The translations under genes and the position numbers were made by a program. From an uncultured Candidatus Rokubacteria bacterium (GTDB lineage Bacteria > Methylomirabilota > Methylomirabilia > Rokubacteriales > CSP1-6): a stretch of 64,000 nt of DNA. The stretch covers positions 1,510,451 to 1,574,450 of the forward strand of contig CAVUPM010000001.1 in NCBI GenBank assembly GCA_963743355.1, given 5' to 3'. The notes under the pieces are model-generated. The model was not told the origin of the DNA and searched no databases. It saw only the letters and a program-made list of their open reading frames with translations. Position 1 is the stretch's first letter. Each line of letters opens with the position of its first letter. This document shows positions 14,189 through 39,976 of the stretch, piece after piece.

Positions 14189-14202
14189 AGCGGAGACGAG
14201 CT

Positions 14203-14620
14203 ATGGCGAGAGTGGCGGGAGTCGATCTGCCGCGAGAGAAGCGCGGCGAAGTGGCGATTACGTACATCTACGGGATTGGGCGGGCGACCGCCAACCGGAT
14301 CCTGGCCAAGGCCAGTGTCGATCCGGGCAAGCGCGTGAAGGCCTGGAACGACGACGAGACCGCCCGTGTGCGGGAGATCATCGAGCGCGAGCTGAAGGTC
14401 GAGGGTGACCTGCGCCGCGACATCTCCATGAACGTCAAGCGGCTCATGGACATCGGCGGCGTATCGCGGCATCCGGCACCGCCGGGGATTGCCGGTCCGC
14501 GGCCAGCGCACCCACACCAACGCGCGGACGCGCAAGGGGCCGCGCAAGGGCGTGATGGTGAAGAAGAAGCCCACAGCGGCGGCACCCGCCCCGGCGGCCG
14601 CAGCGCCGAAGAAAGCATAG
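14203..14620 (+). CDS. rpsM: 30S ribosomal protein S13. A 1-nt insertion near 14455 disrupts the reading frame.
   Basis: [27 protein letters not shown]-terminus. After RLMDIGG the alternate frame reads [30 protein letters not shown]...KKA*. Confidence 0.87.
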
Positions 14621-14631
14621 GAGCCTGAGGC

Positions 14632-15039
14632 ATGGCAGAGCCGGCGAAGCCCGCTCCCCGGAAGAAGGGTGGCAAGAAGCGTGAGCGCCGTGAGGTGCGC
14701 ACCGGCGTGGCCCACGTGCAGGCCACGTTCAACAACACGATCGTGACGCTCACCGACAAGATGGGCAACGTGGTGTCGTGGTCGAGCGCGGGTAGCGCGG
14801 GGTTCAAGGGCTCGCGCAAGAGCACGCCGTTCGCCGCCCAGACGGCCGCCGAGATCGCCGCCCGCAAGGCGATGGAGTTCGGCCTCAAGCAGATCGAGGT
14901 CTTCGTGCGGGGGCCGGGCGCCGGCCGCGAGGCGGCCATCCGCTCGCTGCAGGCGGTCGGGCTCGAGATCACCGCGATCCGCGACGTCACCCCCATCCCC
15001 CACGACGGCTGCCGCCCGCCCAAGCGGCGGCGGGTGTAG
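14632..15039 (+). CDS. rpsK: 30S ribosomal protein S11
   Basis: 135 aa. [18 protein letters not shown]...[11 protein letters not shown]. Confidence 0.95.
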
Positions 15040-15051
15040 GGGAGGCCGACT

Positions 15052-15675
15052 ATGGCCCGATATCGTGACGCCAAGTGCCGGCTGTGCCGCCGCGAGGGCA
15101 TGAAGCTCTTTCTCAAGGGTGCCCGTTGCTTCACCGACAAGTGCGCGATCGAGCGGCGCAACTATCCGCCCGGCATGCACGGCCTGCAGCGCGGTAAGCT
15201 GACGCCGTACGGCGTGCAGCTGCGCGAGAAGCAGAAGGCCAAGCGGATCTACGGCGTGCTGGAGACCCAGTTCCGCAAGTACTTCCAGTGGGCCGAGAGC
15301 CAGAGGGGCGTCACGGGCGAGAACTTGCTCCGGCTGCTGGAGCTGCGTCTGGACAACGTCGTCTACCGCATGGGCTTCGCCGCCTCCCGGCGCGAGTCCC
15401 GGCAGATGGTCGCCCACGGCCACTTCCAGGTGAACGGACGCAAGGCCAGCGTGCCCTCGTTCCTGACCAAGGTCGGCGACGTGGTGGCGCTGCGGCCGAC
15501 CTCCAAGCTGGGCCCGCGCGCGGACGACAACGCCAACGCCGGCCGCGGCCAGATCCCGCAGTGGCTGGACGTCGATCTCAACGGCAAGAAGGCTGTCGTG
15601 CGGGGCCTGCCGCTCCGCGAGGACATCCAGATCCCCGTGTCCGAGCAACTGATCGTCGAGCTGTACAGCAAGTAA
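15052..15675 (+). CDS. rpsD: 30S ribosomal protein S4
   Basis: 207 aa. [22 protein letters not shown] zinc-finger N-terminus. Confidence 0.95.
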
Positions 15676-15690
15676 GGAGGCCGGGGAAGC

Positions 15691-16671
15691 ATGCCACGCA
15701 TTCCGTTCCAGAAGCCGAAGAAGGTCGAGTGGGAGATCCTCAGCGACCGCTACGGCCGGCTGGTGGCCGAGCCGTTCGAGAAGGGCTACGCGCTGACCGT
15801 CGGCAACTCGCTCCGGCGCACGCTGCTGTCCATCGTGCCGGGGGCGGCGGTGGCCTGGGTGAAGATCGAGGGCGTCAAGCCCAACGATACCAAGATCACC
15901 GGCGTCACCGAGGGCCTCACCGACGTGTTGCTGAACCTCAAGAAGCTCGCGATCCAGGTGCCGTCGGACGAGCCGCGGGTGCTGCGCGTCGAGGTGACGG
16001 GTCCCAAGGACGTCAAGGGCGAGGACGTGCCCGAGACGGGTGCCGAGATCCTGAATCCCGAGGCGCACCTGTTCACGCTGGAGGCGGGCGCCCGGCTGAC
16101 CCTGGAGCTCGGCGTGGGCGTGGGTCGTCGCTACCAGGCGGCCGACCAGCCGGGCGGCGGGACGCCGGCCGGCGCCATTGCGCTCGACGCCGCCTACTCG
16201 CCGATCACGCGGGTGGCCTACAACGTCGAGATGTCCCGGCTGGGTAAGATCACCGACTACGAGAAGCTGGTGCTCGAGGTGTGGACGAACGGGGCGATCA
16301 GCCCCGACGACGCGCTGACCCGCGCCTCCACGTACCTGCGCGATCACTTCTCGCCGCTGGCGCCGGCCGGTGGCGACGAGGACGAGGAGGCGGAGGCGGG
16401 TGCCGGCGAGGCCTACCTGCGCGACGCCCTCGGCAAGACGCTGGAGGAGCTGGCGCTCCCGGCCCGGGCCATCAACGCGCTCAAGAGCGCCGAGCTGCAC
16501 CTGGTCGCCGATCTCGTGCAGAAGACCGAGGCCGACCTGGGCGAGGTCAAGAACCTCGGCGACAAGTCGATCGACGAGATCAAGATCGCCCTGGCCGCCC
16601 TCGGTCTCTCCCTCGGCATGCGCATCGACCCCAACGTGCTGGGAGCGCTGGGGCGTGGCGTTGCGAAGTGA
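15691..16671 (+). CDS. rpoA: DNA-directed RNA polymerase subunit alpha
   Basis: 326 aa. GYALTVGNSLRRTLLS N-terminal domain and C-terminal ...LELPARAINALKSAELHLVADLV helix-hairpin-helix. Confidence 0.94.
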   Translation: MPRIPFQKPKKVEWEILSDRYGRLVAEPFEKGYALTVGNSLRRTLLSIVPGAAVAWVKIEGVKPNDTKITGVTEGLTDVLLNLKKLAIQVPSDEPRVLRVEVTGPKDVKGEDVPETGAEILNPEAHLFTLEAGARLTLELGVGVGRRYQAADQPGGGTPAGAIALDAAYSPITRVAYNVEMSRLGKITDYEKLVLEVWTNGAISPDDALTRASTYLRDHFSPLAPAGGDEDEEAEAGAGEAYLRDALGKTLEELALPARAINALKSAELHLVADLVQKTEADLGEVKNLGDKSIDEIKIALAALGLSLGMRIDPNVLGALGRGVAK

Positions 16672-16725
16672 GCCGCGAATCCTAAATCTGGTGAAGTAAG
16701 TCGCGAATCTGTGAAGTAAGTCGCG
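16665..16725 (+). repeat. Three tandem ~17-20-nt direct repeats (GAAGTGAGCCGCGAATC, GAAGTAAGTCGCGAATC, GAAGTAAGTCGCG) spanning the rpoA stop and the rpoA-rplQ spacer
   Basis: Direct reading. Copies 2 and 3 (16691-16705 and 16711-16725) are 15/15 identical. The region has locally low GC. Confidence 0.5.
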
Positions 16726-16761
16726 CACCACCCGTAAATCGACATCGAAGATGAGGATCCG

Positions 16762-17241
16762 ATGAGGCACCGCAAGGACGGTTACAAGCTCGGCCGGCTC
16801 ACCCAGCACCGCTGGGCGATGTTCCGCAATCTGCTGACCGGATTGTTCCGCCACGAGCGCATCGAGACCACCGAGGCCAAGGCCAAGGCGATGCGCGGTC
16901 TGGCCGACCACGTCATCACGCTGGCCAAGCGCGAGAATCTTCACGCCCGCCGGCAGGTGCTGACCCTGGTGCCGGACACCGAGGTCGTGGGCCGCATTTT
17001 CGACACGATCGCCGCCCGTTTCTCCGATCGCAACGGTGGCTACACGCGGATCATCAAGACCCGCGTCCGCCACGGCGACGCCGCCCCCATGGTGCTGCTC
17101 GAGCTGGTCGACCGCGCCGACACCCCCAAGGACGGCGACGGTAAGGGCGACAAGAAGAGGGCCCCGAAGGGCGAGAAGGGCCAGGCGGGAGCTGGCGGCA
17201 AGCGGAAGAAGCGCGAGAAGGCGGCGGCCGCCGCCGGCTAG
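16762..17241 (+). CDS. rplQ: 50S ribosomal protein L17, with Lys/Gly/Ala-rich C-terminal extension
   Basis: 159 aa. The N-terminal 115 aa are canonical L17 (HRKDGYKLGR...). The tail reads DGDGKGDKKRAPKGEKGQAGAGGKRKKREK. Confidence 0.93.
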   Translation: MRHRKDGYKLGRLTQHRWAMFRNLLTGLFRHERIETTEAKAKAMRGLADHVITLAKRENLHARRQVLTLVPDTEVVGRIFDTIAARFSDRNGGYTRIIKTRVRHGDAAPMVLLELVDRADTPKDGDGKGDKKRAPKGEKGQAGAGGKRKKREKAAAAAG

Positions 17242-25658: not shown

Positions 25659-25794
25659 TCAGCGCTCCCCTAAAGTAAAAAGTCAACGTCAACGCTAACA
25701 TGGCGGGCGGGCCGGCGCAACTTCCCGGACCGGCCCGGGCCTCATGGTTACCCTGCCAGCTTGGCACCCCGTCATGCTAGAGTCGATTCTACTC

Positions 25795-27156
25795 ATGGAA
25801 GCCGCCAAAATCCTGGTCGTCGACGACGAGAAGTCGATCCTACTCCTGCTCAAGGAGGCCCTCACCCAGTGGGGGTACGAGGTCACCTGCGCCGCCTCCG
25901 CGGTCGAGGCCCTGGACCTGCTCAAGAACGGCCTCTTCGACGCCCTCATCAGCGACGTCCGGATGCCGGACATGAGCGGCCTGGATCTCTTGCGGGAGGT
26001 CCGCAAGCAGGACGAGTCGATCGAGGTCGTCATGATGACGGGGTACCCGACCATCGCCTCGGCCGTCCAGGCGCTCAAGGAGGGGGCCTACGACTACCTC
26101 TCCAAGCCCCTGATCCTGGACGAGCTGCGCCACCTCATGGCACGGATGATGGAGCGGCGCTTCCTCCGGGGCGAGGTTCACACGCTGAGGGCCCGGCTCG
26201 GTGAAGAGCTGGCCGTCAGTGACTTGGTGGGCTCCTCGGGGCCGATGCAGAGCGTCAAGGACGTCATCGCCAAGGTGGCCGTGACCGACTCGCCGGTGCT
26301 CATCGAGGGCGAGAGCGGCACGGGCAAGGAGCTGGTGGCGGCGGCCATCCACCGCCTGTCGTCCCGGGCCAAGCGCGCGTTCATCCCCGTGAACTGCAGC
26401 GCGATTCCCCAGGACCTGCTCGAGTCCGAGTTCTTCGGCCACGTCCGGGGCGCGTTCTCGGGCGCCGTGGCGGACGCGCTGGGCCTGTTCCGCGGTGCCG
26501 ATGAGGGCACGATCTTTCTGGACGAGATCGCCGAGCTGTCGCCGGCTCTGCAGGTGAAGCTCCTCCGGGTCCTCCAGGAAATGCAGGTCCGTCCCGTCGG
26601 CTCGACGAAGGCTTTCCCCGTCGACGTCCGCGTCATCGCCGCGACCAACCGCGACCTGGAGCGGGCGATGACCGACGGGAGCTTCCGGCAGGACCTCTTC
26701 TATCGGCTCAACGTCGTGCGCATCACGCTGCCGCCGCTGCGCGAGCGGCGTGACGACATCTCGGCGCTCGTGACCCACTTTCTGCGCCGTTTCAACCGCC
26801 GCTTCCACCGCGAGGTGCGCGGGGTGGCCCCGGAGGCCCTGGCGGCCCTCACCGCCTATAGCTTCCCCGGCAACGTCCGCGAGCTCGAGAACCTGATCGA
26901 GCGGGCCTACGCGATGGGCGCGCGCGAGCAGATCTTGCTGGGCGACCTGCCCACGCTGGGGCGGGCCCCCATTATCGCGCCAACCGCCACTGCGACCCAG
27001 GGGAGCCAGGCGGTGCCCACGCTGGCCGACGTCGAGCGCGAGCTGATCCTCAAGGCGCTGGCCGTCTTCAAGGACGACAAGGAGGCGGCTGCGCGGGCCC
27101 TGGGCATCTCGAGGCGGACGATCTATCGCCGTCTCAAGGAGTACGGAGTCCTCTAG
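25795..27156 (+). CDS. sigma54-dependent Fis-family response regulator (NtrC-like: receiver + AAA+ + HTH)
   Basis: Start at the in-frame ATG (MEAAKILVVDDEKS). Receiver Asp (ISDVRMPDMSG), Walker A GESGTGKE, GAFSGA sigma54-contact motif and C-terminal HTH. No histidine kinase is adjacent. Confidence 0.9.
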   Translation: MEAAKILVVDDEKSILLLLKEALTQWGYEVTCAASAVEALDLLKNGLFDALISDVRMPDMSGLDLLREVRKQDESIEVVMMTGYPTIASAVQALKEGAYDYLSKPLILDELRHLMARMMERRFLRGEVHTLRARLGEELAVSDLVGSSGPMQSVKDVIAKVAVTDSPVLIEGESGTGKELVAAAIHRLSSRAKRAFIPVNCSAIPQDLLESEFFGHVRGAFSGAVADALGLFRGADEGTIFLDEIAELSPALQVKLLRVLQEMQVRPVGSTKAFPVDVRVIAATNRDLERAMTDGSFRQDLFYRLNVVRITLPPLRERRDDISALVTHFLRRFNRRFHREVRGVAPEALAALTAYSFPGNVRELENLIERAYAMGAREQILLGDLPTLGRAPIIAPTATATQGSQAVPTLADVERELILKALAVFKDDKEAAARALGISRRTIYRRLKEYGVL

Positions 27157-27227
27157 TCACGGTCGCGCAATTCCTGCGGGGGATGGACCGCGCTCGCGCT
27201 CCACAACTGCCGTAGGCCGTCAGCCCT

Positions 27228-27246
27228 CCGTGCCGTTGCGGCACGG
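27228..27246 (+). promoter_or_regulatory. 19-bp perfect palindrome CCGTGCCG-TTG-CGGCACGG, candidate enhancer-binding-protein site
   Basis: Direct reading. Lies about 52 nt upstream of the predicted -24 element. Confidence 0.3.
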
Positions 27247-27297
27247 AATCCCGATCGTCATCGAGTAAAAACCACGTATTTACTGGTGTTTACCGCT

Positions 27298-27313
27298 TGG
27301 CACGGGCGACGCA
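27298..27313 (+). promoter_or_regulatory. candidate sigma54 (-24/-12) promoter TGGCACG-N4-ACGCA
   Basis: Exact TGGCACG at -24. The GC at -12 has canonical spacing (consensus TGGCACG-N4-TTGCW). Immediately downstream of a sigma54 activator gene and preceded by an AT-rich patch (GTATTTACTGGTGTTTAC). Confidence 0.5.
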
Positions 27314-27326
27314 ATCACCGCCGCCC

Positions 27327-28268
27327 ATGCTTGATACTGAGATCCCTCAGACGCAGCTGAGCTCGAAGCTGGAAGTGGCGATCGGCGTGAGTGTTGACCC
27401 TAACCCGGACGCGGCGATCGCGGAAGCGGCCGGTCTCGCCGGCCGTCGGCTCGGCAGCGCCAATCCCGACTTCGCGCTGGTGGTGACGGCGGGTTCGGTG
27501 GCGCGCGATGCCGTGGGCACGCTGCGCGAGGTTCTCGGACAGATTTCCGTGGCGGGAGGTGCCGCCACTGCGCTTCTCACGGATCACGGCCTCTCGAAGG
27601 AAGGCGCGCTCGTCGTCTGCGTGGCCAACGCGGACGGCGCCGCCAGCGGGGTGGCCGCCACTGCCGGTCGCAATCTGTGCGAGGCCGGACAGGCGGCGGC
27701 GCGTCTCGTGTTGGCGGGCTGGCCCTTCCGCGCTCGATATCCGCGCGGGCTGGCGTTCGCCTTCGCGCGTCCGGACGGCGGTGACGCCGCCCAGACGTTC
27801 CTCGCCGCCTGGCGGGACTTCATGGGGCCTAAGATGCGGACCGTCTGCACGGTGCTTGGCGGCGCCGCAGCGTACGGGCGCGGGGCTCCGCAGCCCCTGG
27901 CCAGCGTCGCGTGCGTCGAGGCGCCCTACGCCTCCGGTATCGGCTACACCGATGCGTCACCGACCGACGGCGTGACCCCGACCCGGGAGACGCTGGTCCA
28001 CGGCGCCGCCGACGCCATGCTCACCGCGGTGAAGCGCCTCGAGGGGCGCCCGGCGCGGCTGGTGCTGGTGATGGAGAGCGCCGCGCGCCATCGCATGCTG
28101 GGCACGGCGGTGGCCGAGGAGTGGGCGGCGATGCGCGGTGTGCTCGAGGATCGCACCCCGTGCGTTGGTTGGATCGGCGAGCACGTGGCCGCCTACGGCC
28201 GCGGCGTGCAGCCGACCGGCGCCCCGGGCGCGCTGGTGGTCGTGACACTCGGAGACGCACCGCGCTGA
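27327..28268 (+). CDS. hypothetical protein, Ala/Gly-rich, about 314 aa. Possibly a FIST-like sensor (speculative). Predicted sigma54-dependent.
   Basis: ORF 27297..28268. The start was moved to the ATG at 27327 because the predicted promoter overlaps the first 10 codons. A GTG near 27372 is an alternative start. No recognisable catalytic motifs. Confidence 0.5.
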   Translation: MLDTEIPQTQLSSKLEVAIGVSVDPNPDAAIAEAAGLAGRRLGSANPDFALVVTAGSVARDAVGTLREVLGQISVAGGAATALLTDHGLSKEGALVVCVANADGAASGVAATAGRNLCEAGQAAARLVLAGWPFRARYPRGLAFAFARPDGGDAAQTFLAAWRDFMGPKMRTVCTVLGGAAAYGRGAPQPLASVACVEAPYASGIGYTDASPTDGVTPTRETLVHGAADAMLTAVKRLEGRPARLVLVMESAARHRMLGTAVAEEWAAMRGVLEDRTPCVGWIGEHVAAYGRGVQPTGAPGALVVVTLGDAPR

Positions 28269-28272
28269 GCTC

Positions 28273-28294
28273 GAGGGGGGCATCGCCCCCCTTC
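28273..28294. terminator. GC hairpin GGGGGGC-ATC-GCCCCCC between convergent genes (bidirectional terminator candidate, no U-tract)
   Basis: Direct reading. Followed by further short palindromes (CGACG-GT-CGTCG, GCGCGCC-TGGC-GGCGCGC) and the REP-like core at 28351-28372. Confidence 0.45.
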
Positions 28295-28350
28295 GACGGT
28301 CGTCGCGCGCCTGGCGGCGCGCTCCTCCCTGCTCCCCCCAGATTCGGATT

Positions 28351-28448: not shown

Positions 28449-30056
28449 TCAGCGGGTGACGTAGCCCGCCAGGAGGTCGCGGGCGATCAGCTCCGGGTCG
28501 CGGTCGGTGGGGGGGCCGTAGCCGCCGCCGCCGGGGAGGTGGATCTCGACCAGGGAGTCGGGGGAGATCACCTGTTCGGCTTTGGGGTTGGGGGGTTGGA
28601 CGCCGTCGATCAGGACCTCGCCCTTGGCTCCGGCGTGACCGCCGCGGAAGCCGGCGGCCGGCTCGACGGTGCGATCGCACAGGACCGAGCAGACGAACGA
28701 CTCGCGCGTGTGCATACGGAACGCGATCGTCTGGCCGAGCCCGCCCCGGTATTTCCCGGCGCCGCCCGAGTCGTCGCGGAGCGCCTTGCGTTCCACCAGC
28801 ATCGGCGAGAGGTTCTCGATCACCTCGACCGGCGTGCCGAGCACACCCGAGGGGAAGGCCGTGGCGGACAGCCCGTCCTTCACGGCGCGCGCGCCGGTTC
28901 CGCCCGACGAGAAGAAAATGTGCGTGAACGGCCGGCCCTCGGCGTCCTTGCCGGAAACCTGCACGCCCCAGATGTTGGCGGAGCCCTCGGCCATGACGCG
29001 CTCGGGCAGCGCCTGGCCGAGCGCGCCGGCGATGACGTGCGGCAGGAAGTGGCCGATGACGTGGCGCGCGGCCACCGGCGCCGGGCGCGTCACGTTGAGG
29101 ATCGACCCCTCCGGCGCGCTGATGCGGATCGGCCGGAACGCGCCCTCGTTGTTGGGCACGTCGGGGCTGATGATCACCTTCACGCCGTACGTCGTGTACG
29201 CCTCGGTGTAGTTCATCACCACGTTGACGCCGCGGCGGCTGGCCGGCGAGGAGCCGGCGTAGTCGATCAGGAGATCGTCGCCCTGCACCTGGCAGCGCAC
29301 CCGGATCGTGATCGGCTCGCCGAAGCCGTCGGAGGTGATCGCGTGCTCGTACACGCCGGGGCGGAGCGCGCGGATCGCCTCCCGCATGGCGCGCTCGGTG
29401 CGGCCGATGATCTCGTCGGCCAGCGGCTCCAGGTGCTCCAGGCCGAACTCGTCCATGAACTCGAGCAGCCGCTCGCCGCCCACGGCGCCACCGGCGATCT
29501 GGGCGTGGAAGTCGCCGAGCACCATCTCGGGCAGCCGCGTATTCTCCCGGATCATCGCCACCAGCGTCTCGTTGGGGCGCCCCGCCTCGTAGAGCTTGAG
29601 GATCGGGATCTGCAGCCCTTCCTCGTACACCTCGCGCGCCTCGGCCGACAGCACGTGGCCGCCGATGTCGGCGGTGTGGCAGGTGGAGGCGAAGAACGCC
29701 ACGCAGCGGTCGCTCCGGAAGATCGGCGAGCAGATGGTGACGTCGTTGAGATGGCCGGAGGTCTTCCAGGGATCGTTGGTGATCAGCACGTCGCCCGGGG
29801 CCAGGCGCTCGGGCGGGTAGACCGCCAGGAAGTGCTTCATCGCCAGCGCCATCGAGTTGATGTGACCGGGCGTGCCGGTCACGGCCTGGGCCACCATGTA
29901 GCCGCGGCTGTCGAAGACGCCGGCCGACAGGTCTCCGGCCTCGCGCACGATCGAGGTGAACGACGTGCGCTGCAGCGCCGCTGCCTGCTCGTTGACGACG
30001 CCGATCAGGCGGTTCCAGCAGATCTCGAGCGTGACCGGATCGAGGATCGTGCTCAT
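28449..30056 (-). CDS. hyuB: hydantoinase B / 5-oxoprolinase subunit (HyuB family)
   Basis: 535 aa from MSTILDPVTLEICWNRL. Hydantoinase_B family conservation. ATG overlaps the hyuA stop (ATGA). The upstream 205 codons of the ORF are Arg-rich junk. Confidence 0.88.
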   Translation of the reverse strand: MSTILDPVTLEICWNRLIGVVNEQAAALQRTSFTSIVREAGDLSAGVFDSRGYMVAQAVTGTPGHINSMALAMKHFLAVYPPERLAPGDVLITNDPWKTSGHLNDVTICSPIFRSDRCVAFFASTCHTADIGGHVLSAEAREVYEEGLQIPILKLYEAGRPNETLVAMIRENTRLPEMVLGDFHAQIAGGAVGGERLLEFMDEFGLEHLEPLADEIIGRTERAMREAIRALRPGVYEHAITSDGFGEPITIRVRCQVQGDDLLIDYAGSSPASRRGVNVVMNYTEAYTTYGVKVIISPDVPNNEGAFRPIRISAPEGSILNVTRPAPVAARHVIGHFLPHVIAGALGQALPERVMAEGSANIWGVQVSGKDAEGRPFTHIFFSSGGTGARAVKDGLSATAFPSGVLGTPVEVIENLSPMLVERKALRDDSGGAGKYRGGLGQTIAFRMHTRESFVCSVLCDRTVEPAAGFRGGHAGAKGEVLIDGVQPPNPKAEQVISPDSLVEIHLPGGGGYGPPTDRDPELIARDLLAGYVTR

Positions 30057-32134
30057 GGCATCGTCACCACGATCGTCAGGCCGTCGTCGACGCGGCCGCG
30101 GGCGCCGGGGCCGATGACGGCGGTCGACTCGCGCTCCTCGACGATCGCGGGCCCGTCGAACGTGACGCCGGGCCCGAGCGCGTAGCGGTCGTAGACCGGC
30201 GTCTCCACCCAGCCCGAGGCCTCGGCGAACCACGCGCGACGTCTCGTCTTCAGCGCGGCGCCGGACGATCGCCCGGCGCCACCGGCGCCGCCGAACGCGA
30301 GCGGCGGTGGCGGTCCCGACACTGTTACCCGCCAGTTGAGCGCCTCGATGGGAACGCCCTGCGGCAGGCGATGGTAGAGCGCGCGGTAGGCCTCCTCGAA
30401 CGACGCGGTGATCGCCGGCAGGCTGGCCGGTGACAGCAGTCGGGCCGGGATCGGCGCCTCGACCTCGTGGCCCTGGCCGACGTAGCGCATCTCGGCGATG
30501 CGCGACACCCGCGCCGCGTCGGGCGCGACGCCGGCCCGGATCAGCAGCGCGCGGCCCTCGTTCTCCATCTCGGCGAAGAGCCGATTGAGCACGTCCCAGT
30601 CGGCGTGGTCCAGGCGCGCGCGGCCCGTCCGCACGAAGTCGAACGCCAACGGGGCAGCCAGCAGCCCCCACGCCGACATCGCGCCGGCGCCGAAGGGCAG
30701 GAGGATCCGCGGCACCCTCAGGATTCGCGCGACCTGCCAGCAGTGCACGGGGCCGGCGCCGCCGAACGCAAAGAGCGGATAGGCGCGCAGGTCGCGGCCA
30801 CGTTCGATCCCGTGGATCCGCGCCGCGGCCGCCATGCTCTCGTTGACCACGCGGTGGATGCCCCAGGCCGCCGCCGTCGGATCGAGACGCAATGGGCCCG
30901 CGACGTGCTCGCTCACCGCGTGCTCGGCCGCACCGCGGTCCAGGCGCATGCGGCCGCCGAGAAAGAACTCGGCGTCGAGGTAGCCGAGCAGCAGGTCGGC
31001 GTCGGTCACGGTCGGCTGGCGGCCGCCCAGATTGTAGCAGGCGGGGCCGGGGTCGGCGCCCGCGCTGTCGGGCCCGACCTTGAGCAGGCCCATGCGGTCC
31101 ACCCGCGCGATGGAGCCGCCGCCGGCGCCGATCTCGATCATTTCGATGACGGGCACGCGGATGGGCAGCCCCGAGCCCTTCTTGAACCGGTCGGCGCGCG
31201 CGACCTCGAACTCACGGGCCACGAGCGGCGCCCCACCGTCGATCACGCACGCCTTCGCGGTCGTGCCGCCCATGTCGAACGACAGCATGCGTGAGTCCCC
31301 GCGCTCGCGCGCGGCCTGGGCCGCGGCCAGCGCGCCGGCGGCCGGGCCCGACTCCACCAGGCGGATCGGCAGCCGGCGCGCCAGCGGCGGCAGCGCGATG
31401 CCGCCGGAGGACTGCATGACGTAGAGCTGGCCGGGCACGCCGAGACCGCCCAGCCGCCGCTCGAGATCCTCGATGTAGCGGGCCATCAGCGGCACCACGT
31501 ACACGTTGGCGGTGGTCGTCGACGTGCGTTCGTACTCGCGGATCTCCGGCACGACGTCGGAGGAGCAGGAGACGGCCAGGTGTGGCGCCGCCTCGCGCAC
31601 CAGCTCGGCCAGCCGGCGCTCGTGGGCGGGATTCAGGTAGGCGTGCAGCAGGCAGATGGCCAGCGCCTCGACGCCGGCGTCGACGAGCTCGCCGATCACC
31701 CGCCGGGCCGCCACCTCGTCGAGCGGACGCAGCACCGAGCCGTCGGGTAACAGCCGCTCCGGCACCTCCCGCCGCAAGTGACGCGGCACCAGCGGGGCCG
31801 GGGGGTCGATCAGCAGATCGTACATGTCGTAGCGACCCTCGCGCTGGATCTCGAGCACGTCGCGGAACCCCGCGGTGGTCAGCAGGGCGGTGCGCGCGCC
31901 CTTGCGCTCGATGAGCGCGTTCGTGGCCAGCGTCGTGCCGTGCACGACGGCGCGGACGCGGGCGGGGTCGACGCCGGCCTCGTCGAGGAGCGACTGCACG
32001 CCCTGCTCGACGCCGAGGGCGGGGTCCTTGGCCGTGGTGAGGACCTTGCCGACGCGGAGCGCGCCGGTACCCTCGTCGATCACGACGAGATCGGTGAACG
32101 TGCCACCGATGTCCACACCGACGCGCGCCGACAT
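30053..32134 (-). CDS. hyuA: hydantoinase A / N-methylhydantoinase A (ATP-hydrolysing)
   Basis: 693 aa. VGVDIGGTFTD N-terminal ASKHA motif and Hydantoinase_A domain. Confidence 0.9.
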   Translation of the reverse strand: MSARVGVDIGGTFTDLVVIDEGTGALRVGKVLTTAKDPALGVEQGVQSLLDEAGVDPARVRAVVHGTTLATNALIERKGARTALLTTAGFRDVLEIQREGRYDMYDLLIDPPAPLVPRHLRREVPERLLPDGSVLRPLDEVAARRVIGELVDAGVEALAICLLHAYLNPAHERRLAELVREAAPHLAVSCSSDVVPEIREYERTSTTTANVYVVPLMARYIEDLERRLGGLGVPGQLYVMQSSGGIALPPLARRLPIRLVESGPAAGALAAAQAARERGDSRMLSFDMGGTTAKACVIDGGAPLVAREFEVARADRFKKGSGLPIRVPVIEMIEIGAGGGSIARVDRMGLLKVGPDSAGADPGPACYNLGGRQPTVTDADLLLGYLDAEFFLGGRMRLDRGAAEHAVSEHVAGPLRLDPTAAAWGIHRVVNESMAAAARIHGIERGRDLRAYPLFAFGGAGPVHCWQVARILRVPRILLPFGAGAMSAWGLLAAPLAFDFVRTGRARLDHADWDVLNRLFAEMENEGRALLIRAGVAPDAARVSRIAEMRYVGQGHEVEAPIPARLLSPASLPAITASFEEAYRALYHRLPQGVPIEALNWRVTVSGPPPPLAFGGAGGAGRSSGAALKTRRRAWFAEASGWVETPVYDRYALGPGVTFDGPAIVEERESTAVIGPGARGRVDDGLTIVVTMP

Positions 32135-33835: not shown

Positions 33836-33886
33836 CCTGGCGATAGGCGATTATGACTCCGCCCGTGCCGGCTTCATGCCAGAAAT

Positions 33887-36418
33887 GTGGTGATCAGGCC
33901 CGGGGGTGGTTTTGCTTTGAGCGCGCTGACGGGACGCTTAGAATCGTTGGCGGACGACCTCCCGGTGAGTGACACCGCCCAGCCGTCTCCTGCGTGGTTG
34001 CGCTGGCTGGCCCCGGCGATTCCGGTTTCGGTAGCGTTCGCCCTGGCGCTCACGCGGATCGAGGACCCCGACGCCTTCACCCATCTGGCCCTCGGCCGCG
34101 AGCTCGTCCACCAGCGTGCATTTCCCGCGCACGAACCCTTCTCGTTCGCCGCCCCTGGCGCCTCCTACTACAACCCGGAATGGCTGTTCGACGTCGTGCT
34201 CTGGCTCGCCTATTTCGCGGCTGGCACGGCGGGCGTCATCCTCCTCAAGGCCGCCATCGTCGCGCTGGCCGTGTGGATCCTGTGGCTCGACTCGCGCGCG
34301 GGGGGCGAGCGCGCCGCCGCCGCCCCGACCGGCCTCCTCATCCGTGCCGCGATCCTCACGGTGGTCGTGGTGATGATCCGGCATCGCTTCGTGGAGCGGC
34401 CTGACCTCGCGCTGATGGTGTTCCTGGGGTTCACGATCTACGCGCTGAACGCCTACCTGGAAATGGGCCGGCGCTGGATCTTCGTGCTGCCCCTCGTCCA
34501 GGTGGTGTGGGTGAACATGCATCCCAGCGTCGTGGTTGGCCTCGTGCCGTTCGCGGCTGTGCTCGGTGGCGGTGTCACGCTGCGCGTGGGTACCGCGCTC
34601 GTGCGACGGTGGTGGGCCCCGACGCAGGCGGTGATTCCATCGTGGCGCCAGCTCGGCGTCGTCACCGCCGTCCTCGCCGGCGTGCTCATCGCGTCCGTCC
34701 TCAACCCCTACCGGTTTGACCCGCTCACGTTGCCGTTCAAGCTGGCCGACCAGCCGTGGTTTCGCCAGGAGGTCATGGAGCTGCAGCCGCCGCAGCCGAC
34801 GACGTGGCCGGGGCCGTTCGTCATGACCGCGCTCCTGCTCCTGGGCCTGGTGGGCACCATCCGACGCCTGCCGCTGATCCCCGGGCTGACGGCGCTGCCG
34901 TTCGTCCGCCTGGGGCTCTCGGCGGTCCGGTTCGTCTTCCTTCTCGAGATCGTCGCCGCGCCGATCCTGGCGCGCACCCTGACGGGCATCACGGCGGGCG
35001 TCCGCGGCCCGCTCGTCCGGCGACTCGTGCTGGGCGGGGCGGCCGCCGCCGCGGGCGTCGCCGTGATCGCAGTCGGCGTGACCGGGGCCGGCATCGGGCC
35101 GCTGGCCGACGCCCGAAAGGCCCCGGGGTTCGGGGTCAACGAGCGCTGGGTTCCCGAGGGCGCTCTGCGCTACCTGGACGCGCGCGGTGTCGAGGGCCGC
35201 CTGTTCAACGCGTTCCACTTTGGCGGCTACATCGAGTGGCGGGACTTCCCGCGACGGGTGCCGATCATCGACGGCCGCGGCTTCGCCGCGCCGAGCCTCA
35301 TCGAGGAGATCCACTTCGCGCGCGCCTACCCCCAGCACCTCGCGCGGCTGCAGGCGCGCTTCGGCCTCGAGGCGGCCGTGATGGACTACCCGACCTACTC
35401 GGGGGACGCGATCGAGGACGTCCTCGGCCCCGACGCCGACCCCGCGCTGGCGTCGCCCGACTGGGCGCTGGTCTACTGGGACGACGTCGCGCTCGTCTAC
35501 CTGCGCCGCCGGGGTCCGCATGCTGCCGTGATCGACCGGGACGAGTACCGGCACGTCAAACCGGCCAGCGGCGCGGCCGGCATCGCCCGGCTGCTGGGCG
35601 ATCCCACGCGCGCGGAGGCGGTGCGCGCGGAGCTGAGTCGCAACGTCGCCGAGACACGCTCCTCGCTGGGCCTGCTGCTGCTGGGCCAGGCCACCGCCGA
35701 TCCCGACCAGGCCATCGCGACCCTGGCGCGCGTGCAGAACCCGGCGCGGCGCTTCGAGGCCGACCAGGCCACCGCGTTCGCCTACTGGCGCCGGAAGGAT
35801 CTTGCGCGGGCCACCGAGTATTACGACCGCGCGCTGGCGCGCCAGCCCGCCGCTTCGATTCTCTATCACGCCGGTCGAGTGCGCGCCGAGGCCGGGGACG
35901 ACCGCGGCGCCGTGGGCTATCTCACGCGCGCCCAGCGTCTCGAGCCCGGCCTGGCGTCGGTGTACCCGGCGCTGATCGCCGCGCACCGTCGGCTCGGCGA
36001 CGAAGGCTCGGCGGTTGCACTGGGTCCGGCGTTTCTCCGGGCCGCCACGCGGGCCCGGGTGGAGCAGCACGAGCGCGCCGCCCGCCGGCTGCTCGCCGAG
36101 AATCGGACCGGCGAGGCCGGTGAAGAGCTGGCCGCGGCGCTGAAGCTCGATCCGCGCAACGTCACGGCGCTCACGACGTTGGGCGTCGTGCGGATGGTCG
36201 AGGGGCGCTTCGACGAGGCCGCTGCCGCCGAGGAGGCCGCGCTGGCGATCGATCCCCGCCACGCTCGCGCCTACTGGGGGCTCGCTCAGATCGCCCGCGC
36301 CCGTGGCGACGAGCCGGCCGTTCGCCGCCACCTGGAGGCCTTCGCGAAGCTCCTCCCCCGCAGCTACGATGCCTGGCAGGTGCGGGAGACGCTCGCCCGC
36401 CGCGCCCCCGGGGGGTGA
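33887..36418 (+). CDS. large integral-membrane protein with C-terminal TPR repeats. Possible GT-C-type (ArnT/PMT-like) glycosyltransferase (inference).
   Basis: 843 aa. About 12 TM helices in the first 430 aa, then a soluble domain with about 6 TPR-like repeats (ALKLDPRNVTALTTLG, AIDPRHARAYWGLA). The start codon is uncertain. Confidence 0.55.
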   Translation: MVIRPGGGFALSALTGRLESLADDLPVSDTAQPSPAWLRWLAPAIPVSVAFALALTRIEDPDAFTHLALGRELVHQRAFPAHEPFSFAAPGASYYNPEWLFDVVLWLAYFAAGTAGVILLKAAIVALAVWILWLDSRAGGERAAAAPTGLLIRAAILTVVVVMIRHRFVERPDLALMVFLGFTIYALNAYLEMGRRWIFVLPLVQVVWVNMHPSVVVGLVPFAAVLGGGVTLRVGTALVRRWWAPTQAVIPSWRQLGVVTAVLAGVLIASVLNPYRFDPLTLPFKLADQPWFRQEVMELQPPQPTTWPGPFVMTALLLLGLVGTIRRLPLIPGLTALPFVRLGLSAVRFVFLLEIVAAPILARTLTGITAGVRGPLVRRLVLGGAAAAAGVAVIAVGVTGAGIGPLADARKAPGFGVNERWVPEGALRYLDARGVEGRLFNAFHFGGYIEWRDFPRRVPIIDGRGFAAPSLIEEIHFARAYPQHLARLQARFGLEAAVMDYPTYSGDAIEDVLGPDADPALASPDWALVYWDDVALVYLRRRGPHAAVIDRDEYRHVKPASGAAGIARLLGDPTRAEAVRAELSRNVAETRSSLGLLLLGQATADPDQAIATLARVQNPARRFEADQATAFAYWRRKDLARATEYYDRALARQPAASILYHAGRVRAEAGDDRGAVGYLTRAQRLEPGLASVYPALIAAHRRLGDEGSAVALGPAFLRAATRARVEQHERAARRLLAENRTGEAGEELAAALKLDPRNVTALTTLGVVRMVEGRFDEAAAAEEAALAIDPRHARAYWGLAQIARARGDEPAVRRHLEAFAKLLPRSYDAWQVRETLARRAPGG

Positions 36419-36428
36419 CGGACGCCGG

Positions 36429-36785
36429 TCAGGGCCGGCGCTCCTCCAGCTGCGTGGAGAGCAAGGCCAGCTCCTGAGCGAGGTTCTTCACCTGGACGGT
36501 GAGGCGCGAGATGATCACCGAGTAGTGCACGGCGATCGCGAACAGGAACAGCACGGCGCAGACCAGCAGCGTGTTGAGCGGGGTGACGGCGCCGACGATG
36601 TGGGTGATGGCGACCAGCAGCCGGTACCAGACCGCGAGCAGGACCATGACCCCGGCCGTGAGCAGCCACAGCCAGGAGTACTCCTCGCGCAATCGCCGGC
36701 GCCGGACCAGCTCGAGGACGAAGAGGAAGGCCAGAACCGAGGTCACCAGCGCGAACAGGGTCTGATGCAGGGTCAGCTCCAGCAT
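36429..36785 (-). CDS. DUF2304-family small membrane protein
   Basis: 118 aa, 3-4 TM helices and a C-terminal coiled coil. This family is typically paired with polyprenol-phosphate GT2 genes. Confidence 0.65.
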   Translation of the reverse strand: MLELTLHQTLFALVTSVLAFLFVLELVRRRRLREEYSWLWLLTAGVMVLLAVWYRLLVAITHIVGAVTPLNTLLVCAVLFLFAIAVHYSVIISRLTVQVKNLAQELALLSTQLEERRP

Positions 36786-36786
36786 G

Positions 36787-38253
36787 TCAGGCTCCCTTGC
36801 GGGCGGCGGGTTCGCGCCTCAGCGGCGCCAGCGCCACCGACAGCAGCATCTTGAACACGTAGTAGATCGGGCGCAGGCCCGCGTGCATCGAGCGGCCGCC
36901 GGCCCGCGGGTACATCCGCACGGGCACCTCGCGCAGCCGGAAGCCCGCCCGCCGCAGCGTGATGAGCACGTCGGCGTCGGCGTAGTCGGTCGGGTACCAC
37001 TCGGTGGCGACGAAGCGCACGACGTCGCCGCCAAACGCCCGGAAGCCCGAGGTGACGTCGGAGAACCGTACGCCCGTCAGCAGCCAGGCCAGCCAGCGGA
37101 AGAGGCCCATGCCGGCGCGGCGGAGCACGCCCGGGCGGTACGCCCCACCCCCCAGGAAGCGCGAGCCGATCGCCACGTCAGCCTCGCCGCGCTGGATCAC
37201 GGCCAGCAGCGCGGGGATGTCGGCCGGCTCATGCTGGCCGTCGGCGTCGAGGTGCACGACGCAGTCGTATCCCTCGCGGACGGCCAGCTTGTAGCCGGTC
37301 TGGGCGGCGACACCGGCGCCGAGGTTGAAGGGCAGGCGGACGACGCGGGCGCCGGCGGCGCGAGCGACATCCGCGGTGTCGTCGTCGGAGCCGTCGTCGA
37401 CGACCAGCATCGTGGCGTCGGGGACGGCCGCCCGCACCCCAGCCAGCACGCGGCCGACGCGCGCGGCCTCGTTGAAGGCGGGCACGAGGACGAGTGGCTT
37501 CATCGACCCGCCGTCCACGGCCGCCGTGTGCCGGGCGACCATCTCGCGCCACGGCACCGCGTGCGCATTCACGTGGGCGCCCGCCTCGGGCCCGGTGTTG
37601 GCCAGCAGGTCGAGCGCGGTGACGTAGGGCTCGAAAACGCCGTGCTGCTGCGGGTAGGGGGACAGATCGTAGTCCATGTACTCGACCGCGATCCCCGCCG
37701 ACTCGAACGCCTCGTGATCGAGATAGGCGAGCCCGCCGTGCCCGGTCAGGTAGCGGGTGGCGCCGAGGGCCTGGCAGACGGCCAGCACGCGCGCCGTGCC
37801 GGCGCCGCCGATGCCGAGCGCGGACGAGCGGAGCGTTTCCCGTCGGATGCCGATCAGCTCGGCCATCAGGCGGGTGGTGGCGATGGTCAGCTCGGCCAGC
37901 CGCGCCCAGATGCCGCCGGCCAGCATGGCCAGCACCGGCTCGACGCTGGCCGCGAACGGCGCCGGCCGCAGCGTGTGGCGGATGACCGCGCCGTGACGCG
38001 TCCGCCAGCGGCCGTCCTCGGCGATGTCCACCTCGTCGATGCGCTGGCCGAAGCGCCCGCTCTTGCGGACCGGCACGGTCAGCCAGGATCGCCCCTGGGC
38101 CGTCTTGAGCTGCACGCGCGCGAAGAAGCTGCGGCTCGTGTTCGAGGTGAACTGCACGTCGTCGTAGAAGACGAAGACGTCGGCTGCCTTCATGAGCGCG
38201 AAGTGGCCCCGCCACGGCAGGTAGCAGGGCTGGTTGATGGCGACGGCGGTCAC
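36787..38253 (-). CDS. WbqC-like domain fused in-frame to a GT2 polyprenol-phosphate glycosyltransferase (DPM1/ArnC-like). May be two coupled genes with an internal start near 37503.
   Basis: A 488-aa ORF with no intervening stop. Residues 1-250 are WbqC-family (INQPCYLPWRGHF). Residues 251-488 are GT2 (MKPLVLVPAFNE...VVDDGSDD...DADGQHEP). Confidence 0.7.
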   Translation of the reverse strand: MTAVAINQPCYLPWRGHFALMKAADVFVFYDDVQFTSNTSRSFFARVQLKTAQGRSWLTVPVRKSGRFGQRIDEVDIAEDGRWRTRHGAVIRHTLRPAPFAASVEPVLAMLAGGIWARLAELTIATTRLMAELIGIRRETLRSSALGIGGAGTARVLAVCQALGATRYLTGHGGLAYLDHEAFESAGIAVEYMDYDLSPYPQQHGVFEPYVTALDLLANTGPEAGAHVNAHAVPWREMVARHTAAVDGGSMKPLVLVPAFNEAARVGRVLAGVRAAVPDATMLVVDDGSDDDTADVARAAGARVVRLPFNLGAGVAAQTGYKLAVREGYDCVVHLDADGQHEPADIPALLAVIQRGEADVAIGSRFLGGGAYRPGVLRRAGMGLFRWLAWLLTGVRFSDVTSGFRAFGGDVVRFVATEWYPTDYADADVLITLRRAGFRLREVPVRMYPRAGGRSMHAGLRPIYYVFKMLLSVALAPLRREPAARKGA

Positions 38254-38788
38254 GCCAGGAAGACCGCCATGATCAGCACGTCCACGAAGTCCTGCCCGCG
38301 GGGTAGCTGGCGTCGCAGCACGCCCTCCGTCTCGAAACCGGCCCGCTGGTAGAGCGCGATGGCGCGCGGGTTGTCGCCGGCTACCTCCAGCAGCACCTTG
38401 CGCAGTCGCAACGCCGCCGCCCGGCGCAGCACCAGGCGCAGCGTCTCGTGCGCGATGCCCTGCCCCCAGCAGTCCTTCTCGCCGATCACCACGCCGAAGT
38501 AGGCGGTGCCACCTCGGCGGTCGATGCGCGTGAGGTTCGTCAGGCCCACCAGACGCCTCGACGCCTGCAGCTCGACGGCAAACGTGAGACGGCTGGGATC
38601 GCTCCCCACGGACACCGCGCGCAGCCAGCGCTGAGCCTCCCGGGTCCGGAACGGCGCGTCGCCCCAGAGCGCGCCGCGGCGCAGCTCCTCGTCGTGCCGC
38701 CAGGCGATCACGCGGGGCAGGTCGGTGCGGCGGAAGGGCCGCAGCCGCACCTGCTCGCCGGCGGCGGCGCGCCCATGCGGCACGCTCA
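38250..38788 (-). CDS. GNAT-family N-acetyltransferase
   Basis: About 179 aa from a GTG that overlaps the upstream stop (GTGA). VRLRPFRRTDLPRV...QRAGF acetyl-CoA-binding motif. Confidence 0.7.
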
Positions 38789-39974
38789 CGGCAGGAAGAA
38801 CCGGAGCCCGGGACGCTCGAGCAGTCCGGCCTGGGCGAGGATGTCGCGAGCGCGCCCGCGGTTCAGGCCGACGAGGATGTCGGTGACGGCCGGGGGAATC
38901 TGCCGCGGATGCACGATGGGCCGGCCCAGGTGCGTCTTGCCGGCCTTGAACGGGTTCTGATCGAGGAAGCAGCTGATGGCCGATCGCGCCGGCGCCGACC
39001 TGCAGCGCGAGGTAGCTGCCGAACACGCCGGCCCCGTAGACCGCCAGCGCCCCCTTGCCGTCGGGGCGCTCGTCCAGGAACGTGCCGAGCCGCGTGCCAC
39101 ACTCGACCCAGCGCGCGACCTCCGCGCGGATCGTGCCGGCATAGACGGCCGCCGTGTCGCCACCGCGCCGGGCCGGGCGCCCGGCGAAGCCGGGCTCGGG
39201 GACGGCCATCAGCGTGATCTGGCCGAGCTGATGGTGCTCGGAGGCGACGATCGGCCGCAGCCCGCAACGCTGCAGCAGCGTGCTGAGGCTCGGGGCCGAG
39301 AAGTGCGAGAGGTGGTCGGCCAGGAACGCGTCGATCGTGTTGGTGACGACGTTGGGGACGGTGAGGTACAGGAACCCGGTCGGCGCCAGCAGCGATGCGA
39401 GCCGGCCCAGCGTCACCGCGGGATCGATCAGGTGCTCGGCGACGAAGAACATCGTCACGAGGTCGAAGGGCCCGGCCGGCGTGGCCGGCCGCTCGAGTGG
39501 CGTCACCCGGAACCCGCCGGGGCCGGTGAGCGGCTCCACGAAGGCCCGGTAGCGTTCGGAGACGTCGCAACCAAACAGCTCCCAGCCCGGGTGCTGGCGC
39601 TGGAAGCGCGCCAGGAACGCGCCCTTGCCGCAGCCGAAGTCGAGCACGCGCCCCTTGGATGGCAGGTTCGCGAGCCGGCCGAGGTTGTCGAGCTGGATCT
39701 GCGAGCGGTAGATCGGCCGCCCGTCGGCGTCCAGGTCGTAGAGATCGTCGGCGTCCGCGCACTCGAGCAGCGAGTCGTACTCCCGATCGTAGTAGTCCGC
39801 GACGTCGGCCAGCCCGCCCTCGTCGCTCATGACGTGGGCGCAGCCCGGGCAGAGATAGATCTTGAGCCGCCCCCGCCGGAGCTTCGACTCGGAGGTCAGG
39901 GTCTCGTCGAGCGCCGAGGCGTGCAGCAGCTCGGGCTGGGGACGCGCGCAGGCGCGGCAGACGACCAGCATCGC
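38786..39974 (-). CDS. NDP-sugar C-methyltransferase (TcaB9-like: Zn ribbon + SAM MTase + C-terminal domain), copy 1. A frameshift near 39060 disrupts the reading frame.
   Basis: N-terminus MLVVCRACARPQ...CPGCAHV, motif I VLDFGCGKG. The C-terminus continues in the alternate frame (ORF 38786..39163: FLDQNPFKAGKTHLGRPIVHP). Confidence 0.7.
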
Positions 39975-39976
39975 GC

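Follow-up and report, generated by a model that had tools for sequence, protein, structure and literature searches.

A predicted sigma-54-dependent locus pairing an orphan activator with a truncated FIST-fold protein in Candidatus Rokubacteria

A stretch of 64,000 nt (hereafter the window; G+C content 70.5%) from an uncultured Candidatus Rokubacteria bacterium of the Methylomirabilota was analyzed (GCA_963743355.1, contig CAVUPM010000001.1, positions 1,510,451–1,574,450). It contains a gene for an NtrC/AtoC-class sigma-54 enhancer-binding protein (EBP) without an adjacent kinase gene, followed on the same strand by a -24/-12 promoter motif and a single target gene. Profile–profile and fold comparison showed that the product of this target is a divergent, truncated member of the FIST superfamily. 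We consider it rather probable that the locus is a conserved sigma-54-dependent transcription unit, the product of which is a signaling accessory feeding back on the phosphorelay of the activator. Rokubacteria and Methylomirabilota are abundant, uncultured soil bacteria, and to our knowledge gene regulation in them is essentially unstudied; limited text searches of the literature turned up nothing on sigma-54 in Rokubacteria.

The locus consists of the following elements (window positions):

25754..25766, no strand: 13-bp palindrome TGCCAGCTTGGCA (TGYCR-N3-YGRCA; TGYCA-N3-TGRCA), 29 nt before the activator ATG; probable autoregulatory site
25775..25783, plus strand: extended -10-like element TGCTAGAGT, 11 nt before the activator start codon; predicted activator promoter
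25795..27156, plus strand: NtrC/AtoC-class sigma-54 enhancer-binding response regulator, 453 aa, with a receiver (REC) domain, an AAA+ domain with GAFSGA and a Fis-type helix-turn-helix (HTH)
27207..27223, no strand: site A, distal repeat CTGCCG-TAGGC-CGTCAG, center at about -109 from the predicted start
27227..27247, no strand: site B, proximal 21-bp repeat TCCGTGCCG-TTG-CGGCACGGA, core GTGCC-N5-GGCAC at 27230–27244, center at about -87
27248..27297, no strand: AT-rich tract between site B and the promoter; possible bend or site of the integration host factor (IHF) type
27298..27313, plus strand: putative sigma-54 (-24/-12) promoter TGGCACG-GGCG-ACGCA = TGGCACGGGCGACGCA, with conserved boxes and a variable spacer
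27323..27327, plus strand: predicted transcription start (the C of the GC doublet plus 12 = 27324), 0–4 nt ahead of the ATG, deduced from the promoter position
27327..28268, plus strand: truncated FIST-fold protein, 313 aa; sole conserved target of the promoter
28272..28295, no strand: GC-rich hairpin, probably a terminator, separating the FIST-like gene from the convergent hydantoinase B gene

Activator gene, promoter and upstream sites

Related loci were collected by a genome scan, which gave 25 loci, all from metagenome-assembled genomes of Rokubacteria/Methylomirabilota. Loci L001–L024 are the close ones (24 orthologous loci), L025–L033 form a deeper clade, and L034, L035, L037, L039 and L040 are more distant relatives. 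In L001–L024 and in every locus of the 25-locus scan, the EBP gene and the FIST-like gene adjoin on the same strand with the EBP gene upstream (170 nt apart in the window), and this pair is the sole invariant unit across 33 loci. The activator is 82–93% identical across L001–L024, and the target proteins of the same loci are 57–89% identical. The reading made earlier from the letters of the window (the sequence-only reading) had asked whether the two genes are syntenic in relatives. Their co-occurrence proved universal, and the pair stays adjacent in all loci while the downstream neighbors change. The upstream block CNNM-thiL-trpE-trx is as conserved as the EBP–target pair.

Pfam analysis of the activator revealed the domains Response_reg (E 3.7e-29), Sigma54_activat (E 1.5e-67), AAA_lid_14 and HTH_8 (E 7e-13). 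The acidic pocket, phospho-Asp, Thr and Lys motifs of the receiver are intact (VVDDE at residue 8, SDVRMP with D54, MMTGY and LSKP), and the AAA+ domain contains GESGTGKE, IFLDE, GAFSGA (residues 219–224), ESEFFGH and GNVREL, with Walker A, Walker B and sensor II kept. In 24 relatives the loop reads GAFSGA, the remaining ones having GAFTGA or GSFTGA; the two clades share one and the same HTH recognition helix, SRRTIYRRLKEYG. These domains and motifs bear out the earlier description of an NtrC-like regulator with a receiver, an AAA+ domain with GAFSGA and an HTH; by them, the protein is an intact NtrC-class response-regulator EBP with all structural features of the class. The best NCBIfam matches were AtoC, NtrC and ZraR, all under the equivalog cut-offs (AtoC 464.6 against 714, NtrC 420.2 against 558.6, ZraR 405.7 against 760). 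The identity with PrsR of the PEP-CTERM system was ruled out as well (367 bits against a cut-off of 502.6). Judged by sequence, the activator can be assigned to no named orthologous group (AtoC, NtrC, ZraR, GlrR, PrsR, LuxO). The earlier remark that no histidine kinase stands beside the regulator holds for the entire 64 kb, in which Pfam scans of the neighbors and of large open reading frames (ORFs) and an H-box pattern scan found none. Nor was a kinase found within about 6 kb in the 33 related loci, so the adjacent kinase gene that classically marks a two-component system is absent.

The promoter motif contains the doublets GG (27299–27300) and GC (27311–27312) at the canonical GG-N10-GC spacing, and the perfect -24 box with a correctly spaced -12 GC that had been read there is present. 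The motif matches the consensus TGGCAC-N5-TTGCW at 10 of 12 positions. In all 24 close loci, TGGCAY-N5-nYGCA is the best consensus match in the intergenic region. The spacers vary freely among loci (GGGCGA, GGAGGA, GACCTC, TCGCGC, CCCCGG), and the -12 box is ACGCA in the window and CTGCA or GTGCA in more distant loci. A MAFFT alignment of the region upstream of the target in 16 representative loci had a mean column identity of 60%, and its invariant columns were TTGGCA, GCA, ATG and parts of the two upstream repeats. The two boxes carried 1.86 and 1.75 bits of information per position, the spacer 0.73 and the flanks 0.57. When a weight matrix was built from the other loci with the window left out, position 27298 ranked first among 127,962 positions (25.5 bits; runner-up 13.3). 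The motif was also found in eight loci of the deeper clade, and L025–L033 keep the invariant TGGCATCCTCCCTGCA. Within the window, TGGCACG-N6-GC was observed once against 2.0 expected occurrences; the significance of the motif therefore comes from its conservation across orthologous loci and not from the window alone. The promoter scan detected no sigma-70-type promoter; with this and the universal co-occurrence of the two genes, both conditions that the sequence-only reading had named against itself failed. We infer that the 27298–27313 promoter would depend on sigma-54 in vivo. Two other -24/-12-like matches, both on the minus strand, were rejected: the one at 33866–33881 is not conserved upstream of the orthologue in L003, and the one at 59011–58996 lies inside a thiE-like ORF.

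The start codon of the target is ATG in 25/25 loci and lies 13–15 nt after the motif in all of them, which gives a predicted 5' untranslated region of 3–5 nt. No Shine–Dalgarno (SD) sequence was found at this start: the anti-SD pairing energy was +0.4 kcal/mol, compared with -6.5 to -9.5 kcal/mol for trx, tuf, rpsJ and rpsC. An in-frame stop 12 nt upstream of the ATG in L001, L007 and L017 excludes a longer ORF, and orthologues differ in N-terminal length by entire codons, keeping the frame of the ATG of the window. The spacing of motif and ATG, the absence of an SD, the invariant ATG and the upstream stops lead us to predict a leaderless or near-leaderless target mRNA with its start at the predicted site. 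A leader of 22–25 nt with GGAGA precedes the first gene behind the promoter in the L025-type loci. Limited text searches of the literature turned up no sigma-54-driven leaderless transcript.

Among the loci, site A keeps the form sTGCCGAAnnnyGTCAs, placed at -89 to -91 relative to the -24 box, and its GTCA is invariant in the 16-locus alignment. In 25/25 loci, the core of site B, GTGYC-N5-GRCAC, is placed at -65 to -70 on the same scale. A perfect palindrome of 19 bp (27228–27246) had been reported at site B; it is real and conserved upstream at a fixed distance from the promoter, but it extends over 21 bp (27227–27247). The centers of the two sites are 22 bp apart, about two helical turns, so both would face the same side of the helix. 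In L025, two TGYCR-N3-YGRCA 13-mers precede the promoter. The proximal site is about 61 bp from the -24 box in window-type loci and 81–82 bp in L025-type loci, and this difference is again two helical turns.

Site B was also considered as a terminator of the regulator gene and was rejected in that role. Its distance to the EBP stop codon ranges from 28 to 1,124 nt across loci, and it tracks the promoter rather than the stop codon. In L017, a 367-aa ORF without a Pfam match (755–1858, minus strand) is inserted between the activator stop codon and the upstream sites, which remain with the target gene; this natural experiment assigns the sites to the target. The half-sites follow GTGYC/GRCAC; in eight loci the arms are GTGCC and GACAC, so that a stem would contain a C–A mismatch. 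In seven other loci, both arms changed symmetrically to GTGTC/GACAC. There is no U-tract. As RNA, the palindrome would fold with a free energy (dG) of -16.6 kcal/mol (z -3.3), and palindrome patterns occur in the window at expected rates. Because of the variable stop distance, the L017 arrangement, the mismatch in eight loci and the missing U-tract, site B appears to be a protein-binding site and not a terminator.

The AT-rich patch mentioned earlier is present: the 47 nt before the -24 box are 57% A+T (38–68% in the 33 loci), compared with about 30% in the genome. An IHF site was rejected, since matches to the E. coli consensus WATCAANNNNTTR are weak and inconsistent in position and only the AT-richness is conserved.

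The divergent intergenic region between trx and the activator gene (25659–25794) is strongly conserved in about 23 loci. The pattern TGYCR-N3-YGRCA precedes the EBP gene in nearly all loci holding that region, and across about 290 kb of loci it was otherwise found almost only at the upstream site of the target gene. The presence of this third copy before the activator's own gene suggests autoregulation, and the palindrome at 25754–25766 is probably an autoregulatory binding site of the activator. More broadly, the activator is predicted to bind sites A and B as well as this palindrome. The element TGCTAGAGT is present exactly or with one mismatch in 23 loci. The activator start codon differs among loci (ATG, GTG, TTG) and has no SD in the window (duplex energy of -2.4 kcal/mol, compared with -6.5 to -9.5 kcal/mol for trx, tuf and rpsC). 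Since TGCTAGAGT lies so close to this start and an SD is absent, the activator mRNA may be near-leaderless too; in contrast to the window, the leader of the L025 activator gene contains an SD.

The sequence TGGCAC at 25762–25767 was rejected as a second sigma-54 promoter: its doublets are spaced as GG-N11-GC, and the sequence forms the right arm of the conserved palindrome TGYCA-N3-TGRCA. Next to trx there is a conserved block AAAAGTCAACGnCnACGCTAACAT (25684–25708), the minus strand of which reads TGTTAGCGT and resembles TGCTAGAGT of the activator. It may be the trx promoter (consensus TGnTAGnGT), followed by a leader of about 35 nt containing an SD. The terminator scan flags the same block as a hairpin with a T-run on the minus strand.

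The FIST-like product and its relatives

A total of 404 homologues of the target protein were detectable, nearly all of 311–316 aa, and the named ones come from Methylomirabilota. Pfam gave two matches to the product, both below threshold: FIST_C (PF10442) with 19.6 bits against a cut-off of 28.5, and FIST_N (PF08495) with 14.5 against 23.2. At E <= 0.1, FIST_C was found in 18 of 20 family members and FIST_N in 9 of 20. NCBIfam gave no match to the product, and a sequence-profile search of the PDB gave none at E <= 1. When the family profile was run against 1.84 billion representative sequences, only 146 proteins were found, and the distant ones among them are 390–400 aa long with strong FIST_N and FIST_C. 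Comparison of the family with 17 canonical FIST_N+FIST_C proteins using hhalign gave a probability of 99.5% (E 1.2e-22, 289 columns), at a sequence identity of the product to canonical FIST proteins of 19–23%.

Modeling of the product using AlphaFold 2 led to a model with a predicted local distance difference test score (pLDDT) of 72.8 and a predicted template modeling (TM) score of 0.79. The top Foldseek match was the FIST domain of FBXO22 (E 3e-9, TM 0.6), followed by cyanuric acid hydrolases and chorismatase; cyanuric acid, barbiturate and orotate hydrolases had E of about 1e-4 and TM of 0.45–0.50. The FBXO22 structure paper lists the same structural neighbors for the three-repeat FIST fold. 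In the model, the product has this three-repeat fold, with low confidence in the second repeat. The sequence-only reading had been able to place no motif in the product and had left it unassigned; the hhalign and Foldseek results replace that statement with a FIST-superfamily assignment. The protein is cytoplasmic.

Compared with the canonical proteins, about 100 central residues are absent, the gap covering the last part of FIST_N and the ~60 positions with which FIST_C begins, and the full-length architecture (about 320 domain positions, about 390 aa) is not present. In the 17 canonical proteins, the segment absent here bears the invariant RHGW, Y, PxG and R positions. The clade has invariant motifs of its own: GWPFRARYPRG, WRDFMGPKMRT and KRLEGRP. 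The first of them (residues 131–141) is Arg-rich and lies in a low-confidence loop of the model. Of the cysteines, C174 is invariant and C98 and C279 are almost so; the latter two also persist in the 378-aa clade described below. Together with GWPFRARYPRG, these three cysteines may make up a site for redox chemistry or for binding a metal or an anion. The family has no invariant His, H225 being only nearly invariant.

The hairpin after the target gene folds in a 49-nt segment with dG of -31.1 kcal/mol and z of -3.3 on the plus strand and -26.7 kcal/mol on the minus strand. The gene does end at a clean GC hairpin, as had been read, though without a U-tract. The terminator scan did not call it, there being no U-tract at 28272–28295, and the hairpin is probably a terminator.

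In the deeper clade L025–L033, an activator like that of the window and its upstream sites stand before the sigma-54 promoter motif of an operon of three genes:

L025 5394–7128 (L025–L033 operon): stand-alone receiver of 130 aa, peptide of ~48 aa and FIST protein of 378 aa, SD-led, after TGGCATCCTCCCTGCA

The receiver of this operon was identified by Pfam (E 8e-12), the peptide has one predicted transmembrane helix (MKRDL...FLIQGLIGIVLAALWMTLGLQ), and the target protein is 38% identical to the product of the window. In L039, a receiver gene is followed by that of a 311-aa truncated FIST. The nearest bona fide FIST relatives (L034, L035, L037; 389 aa) lie between a hybrid histidine kinase with four GAF domains and a CheA-like kinase, followed by CheB. 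In L034 (91–8151), the CheA-like kinase has Hpt, dimerization, HATPase, CheW and REC domains, and the genes form a chemosensory-type signaling cluster. Flanking kinases were found only in these three distant relatives. The sequences suggest a lineage leading from a kinase-linked FIST through an EBP-controlled receiver–peptide–FIST operon to the minimal, truncated stand-alone gene. One further homologue (L040, 200–470; 314 aa, no Pfam match) has TGGCACCTGCCGTGCA 134 nt upstream of an SD-led start, preceded by the long inverted repeat TGGCACGCGG-N10-CCGCGTGCCA; its contig is too short to reveal any activator gene upstream.

Proposed mechanism and alternative explanations

The features described above can be combined as follows. 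A kinase encoded elsewhere would phosphorylate Asp54 of the activator, and the phosphorylated protein would bind the inverted repeats 27207–27223 and 27227–27247, at about -109 and -87 on the same helical face. The AT-rich, bendable tract would bring it to RNA polymerase–sigma-54 on TGGCACG-N4-ACGCA, where ATP hydrolysis and the GAFSGA loop would open the promoter. Transcription would proceed from about 27324, just before the ATG at 27327, and yield a leaderless, monocistronic mRNA ending at the hairpin 28272–28295. The third 13-bp palindrome (25754–25766), beside the extended -10 promoter of the activator, would probably serve autoregulation. The FIST-like product would modulate the phosphorelay controlling its own activator. 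NosP proteins are accessory sensors of the stand-alone FIST type; they bind histidine kinases, which they modulate, and in V. cholerae they feed LuxU–LuxO (PMC12570481, PMC8846402, PMC6769237). Because NosP-type FIST proteins dock on kinases and the nearest canonical relatives of the product are kinase-flanked, a signaling accessory with feedback on the phosphorelay is, by analogy, the most likely role of the product. The sequence-only reading had spoken of a compact, self-contained module. The locus is indeed a conserved unit, and more parts belong to it than were then named, namely site A, the candidate autoregulatory site and the ATG spacing that implies a leaderless mRNA.

Several observations weigh against this mechanism. 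The role of the FIST-like protein is drawn from analogy, and no kinase is adjacent in the 33 loci. The product lacks the central segment bearing the RHGW, Y, PxG and R invariants, and in the middle of the model pLDDT is 48–62. Within the single window, the promoter and palindrome motifs are no more frequent than chance. The -12 box reads ACGCA and not TTGCA, and when scored by generic consensus alone, the whole promoter site is level with four others of the window. The spacer of site A is 5 nt, compared with 3 nt in the other sites, so the mode of binding at site A, or the protein bound there, may differ. It is conceivable that transcription of the EBP gene reads through into the target gene. 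Gene order by itself proves little, because the trpE-trx-EBP block is equally syntenic, and all loci come from a single phylum-level lineage.

A bolder form of the proposal is that the sole conserved target is a truncated FIST acting directly on the orphan activator or its kinase. The sigma-54 promoter would be hard-wired to a leaderless mRNA clade-wide, and the locus would be a minimal two-gene autoregulatory circuit with a new functional class of FIST that has lost its receiver and peptide partners. We put this forward tentatively, as possible but clearly less probable than the signaling accessory.

Somewhat less probable still is that the FIST-like protein directly counteracts or co-regulates the EBP, in a negative-feedback loop like FleQ–FleN or PspF–PspA. 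The invariance of the activator–FIST pair across the 33 loci and the lack of a kinase gene nearby agree with it. In addition, FIST can be a protein-recognition module (FBXO22 binds BACH1 through its third FIST repeat), and the central truncation fits a lost ligand or kinase interface with the scaffold retained. However, REC-containing EBPs are normally controlled by phosphorylation, and the stand-alone receiver in the operon of the deeper relatives points to phosphorelay partners and not to the AAA+ domain.

The FIST-like protein could also be the physiological output of the locus, small-molecule-binding or enzymatic, with a YjgF-derived three-repeat fold like that of cyanuric acid hydrolases and chorismatases. 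The Foldseek matches to cyanuric acid, barbiturate and orotate hydrolases and chorismatase, the many invariant Arg, Ser and Lys residues of the family (in GWPFRARYPRG, WRDFMGPKMRT and KRLEGRP) and the cyclic-amide hydrolase genes (hydantoinase A and B) convergent downstream in about half of the loci suit this explanation. Nevertheless, we regard it as unlikely, since these neighbors are missing from the other half of the loci, the sequence homology is to FIST signaling proteins and not to enzymes (no PDB match at E <= 1, hhalign to FIST 99.5%), and the closest relatives lie in receiver, kinase and chemotaxis-type operons.

An orthologue of NosP, i.e., a heme-based nitric oxide sensor controlling a kinase, is very improbable. 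The product is a stand-alone FIST-superfamily protein, as are the NosP accessory sensors with FIST–FIST_C, and NosP–VpsS of V. cholerae feeds LuxU–LuxO, LuxO being a sigma-54 EBP. However, there is no adjacent kinase, the ~100 missing residues include the only His (in RHGW) invariant in the 17 canonical FIST proteins, no His of the family is invariant (H225 only nearly so), and the identity to canonical FIST proteins is 19–23%. Least probable of all is that the -24/-12 match and the palindrome are due to chance or a terminator, the gene being co-transcribed with the regulator from a sigma-70-type promoter: the chance frequency of the motifs in the window, the good RNA fold of the palindrome and the 170-nt gap between genes of the same strand would allow it, but in 24 loci and the deeper clade the boxes are kept while the flanks have diverged, and the palindrome tracks the promoter (28 to 1,124 nt from the stop codon), stays with the target in L017, has a stem mismatch in eight loci and has no U-tract.

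Relation to known systems and gene neighborhood

A comparison with known systems indicated that the predicted cis-architecture would work like that of NtrC-type enhancers. As in NtrC–glnAp2 (and with AtoC and ZraR), the activator is of the REC–AAA+–HTH type. Like NtrC–glnAp2, the locus has two adjacent dyad sites on the same helical face about 80–110 bp upstream, a bendable region between the sites and the GG-N10-GC promoter, and probable autoregulation via a site at the activator's own sigma-70-type promoter. Unlike the ntrB–ntrC, atoS–atoC and zraS–zraR pairs, the window activator has no adjacent kinase gene. It also differs from NtrC, AtoC and ZraR in falling below every NCBIfam equivalog cut-off and in its half-site TGYCR. 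Unlike glnAp2, the window promoter abuts the start codon, with no leader or SD.

The product resembles NosP (NosP–NahK in P. aeruginosa, NosP–NosK–NosR in Burkholderia, NosP–VpsS–LuxU–LuxO in V. cholerae) as a stand-alone cytoplasmic FIST protein in a two-component setting, and the Vibrio pathway likewise ends at a sigma-54 EBP. Unlike NosP, which has about 390–400 aa and complete FIST_N and FIST_C domains and is encoded co-cistronically with a kinase, the product has 313 aa, no RHGW segment and no adjacent kinase, and it is a target of the EBP and not a demonstrated input to it. The FIST domain of FBXO22 (PDB 8ua6, 8ua3, 8s7e), the best match of the model, has three beta-alpha repeats with pseudo-threefold symmetry, as does the product. 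However, FBXO22 is a eukaryotic F-box substrate receptor, the sequence identity is 8–9%, and the second repeat of the bacterial product is reduced. FleQ–FleN and PspF–PspA are likewise compact pairs of an activator and one target, the product of which could feed back on activator output. FleN (a MinD-type ATPase) and PspA (ESCRT-III-like) are both unrelated to FIST, and such feedback here is a possibility only.

The new elements would be the truncated, unannotated FIST subfamily, its position as the only conserved gene that an orphan activator would target through sigma-54, and the spacing that predicts a leaderless mRNA. The locus offers a fully specified cis-regulatory architecture (activator, 13-bp palindrome, two upstream sites, bend region, -24/-12 promoter and single target) and is testable in a heterologous host. 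The locus also defines a narrow subfamily that Pfam and NCBIfam leave unassigned, within a FIST sensor fold that is itself poorly understood. Should the predicted start be true, sigma-54-dependent transcripts without a leader would have a conserved example in the target mRNA.

The context downstream of the FIST-like gene varies, and three arrangements were found among the loci:

Arrangement 1: convergent hydantoinase B and A genes, as in the window; about half of the loci
Arrangement 2: convergent block of MOSC, MaoC and Liv-type ABC transporter genes
Arrangement 3: co-directional gene of a TPR membrane protein, then glycosyltransferase genes

In L012–L014, L020 and L024, the TPR membrane protein gene directly follows the FIST-like gene on the same strand with a gap of about 70 nt, and co-transcription of the two is possible there. 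The window opens with a ribosomal protein cluster running from tuf-rpsJ through rpoA and rplQ (1–17241). No tRNA genes were found in the window, and no Rfam family reached its gathering score. Downstream of the target, the hydantoinase/oxoprolinase B and A genes (28449–32134) are convergent to it and are followed by a large polysaccharide-type cluster (33887–52528) with a TPR membrane protein, WbqC–GT2 and several glycosyl-, methyl- and acetyltransferases, and by a MaoC-like and Liv-type ABC transporter block (53051–58588). In L002, L008, L015–L019, L021, L022 and L025, this MaoC/Liv block lies immediately 3' of the FIST-like gene; thus, about 25 kb of hydantoinase and polysaccharide genes appear to have been inserted or rearranged in the window genome.

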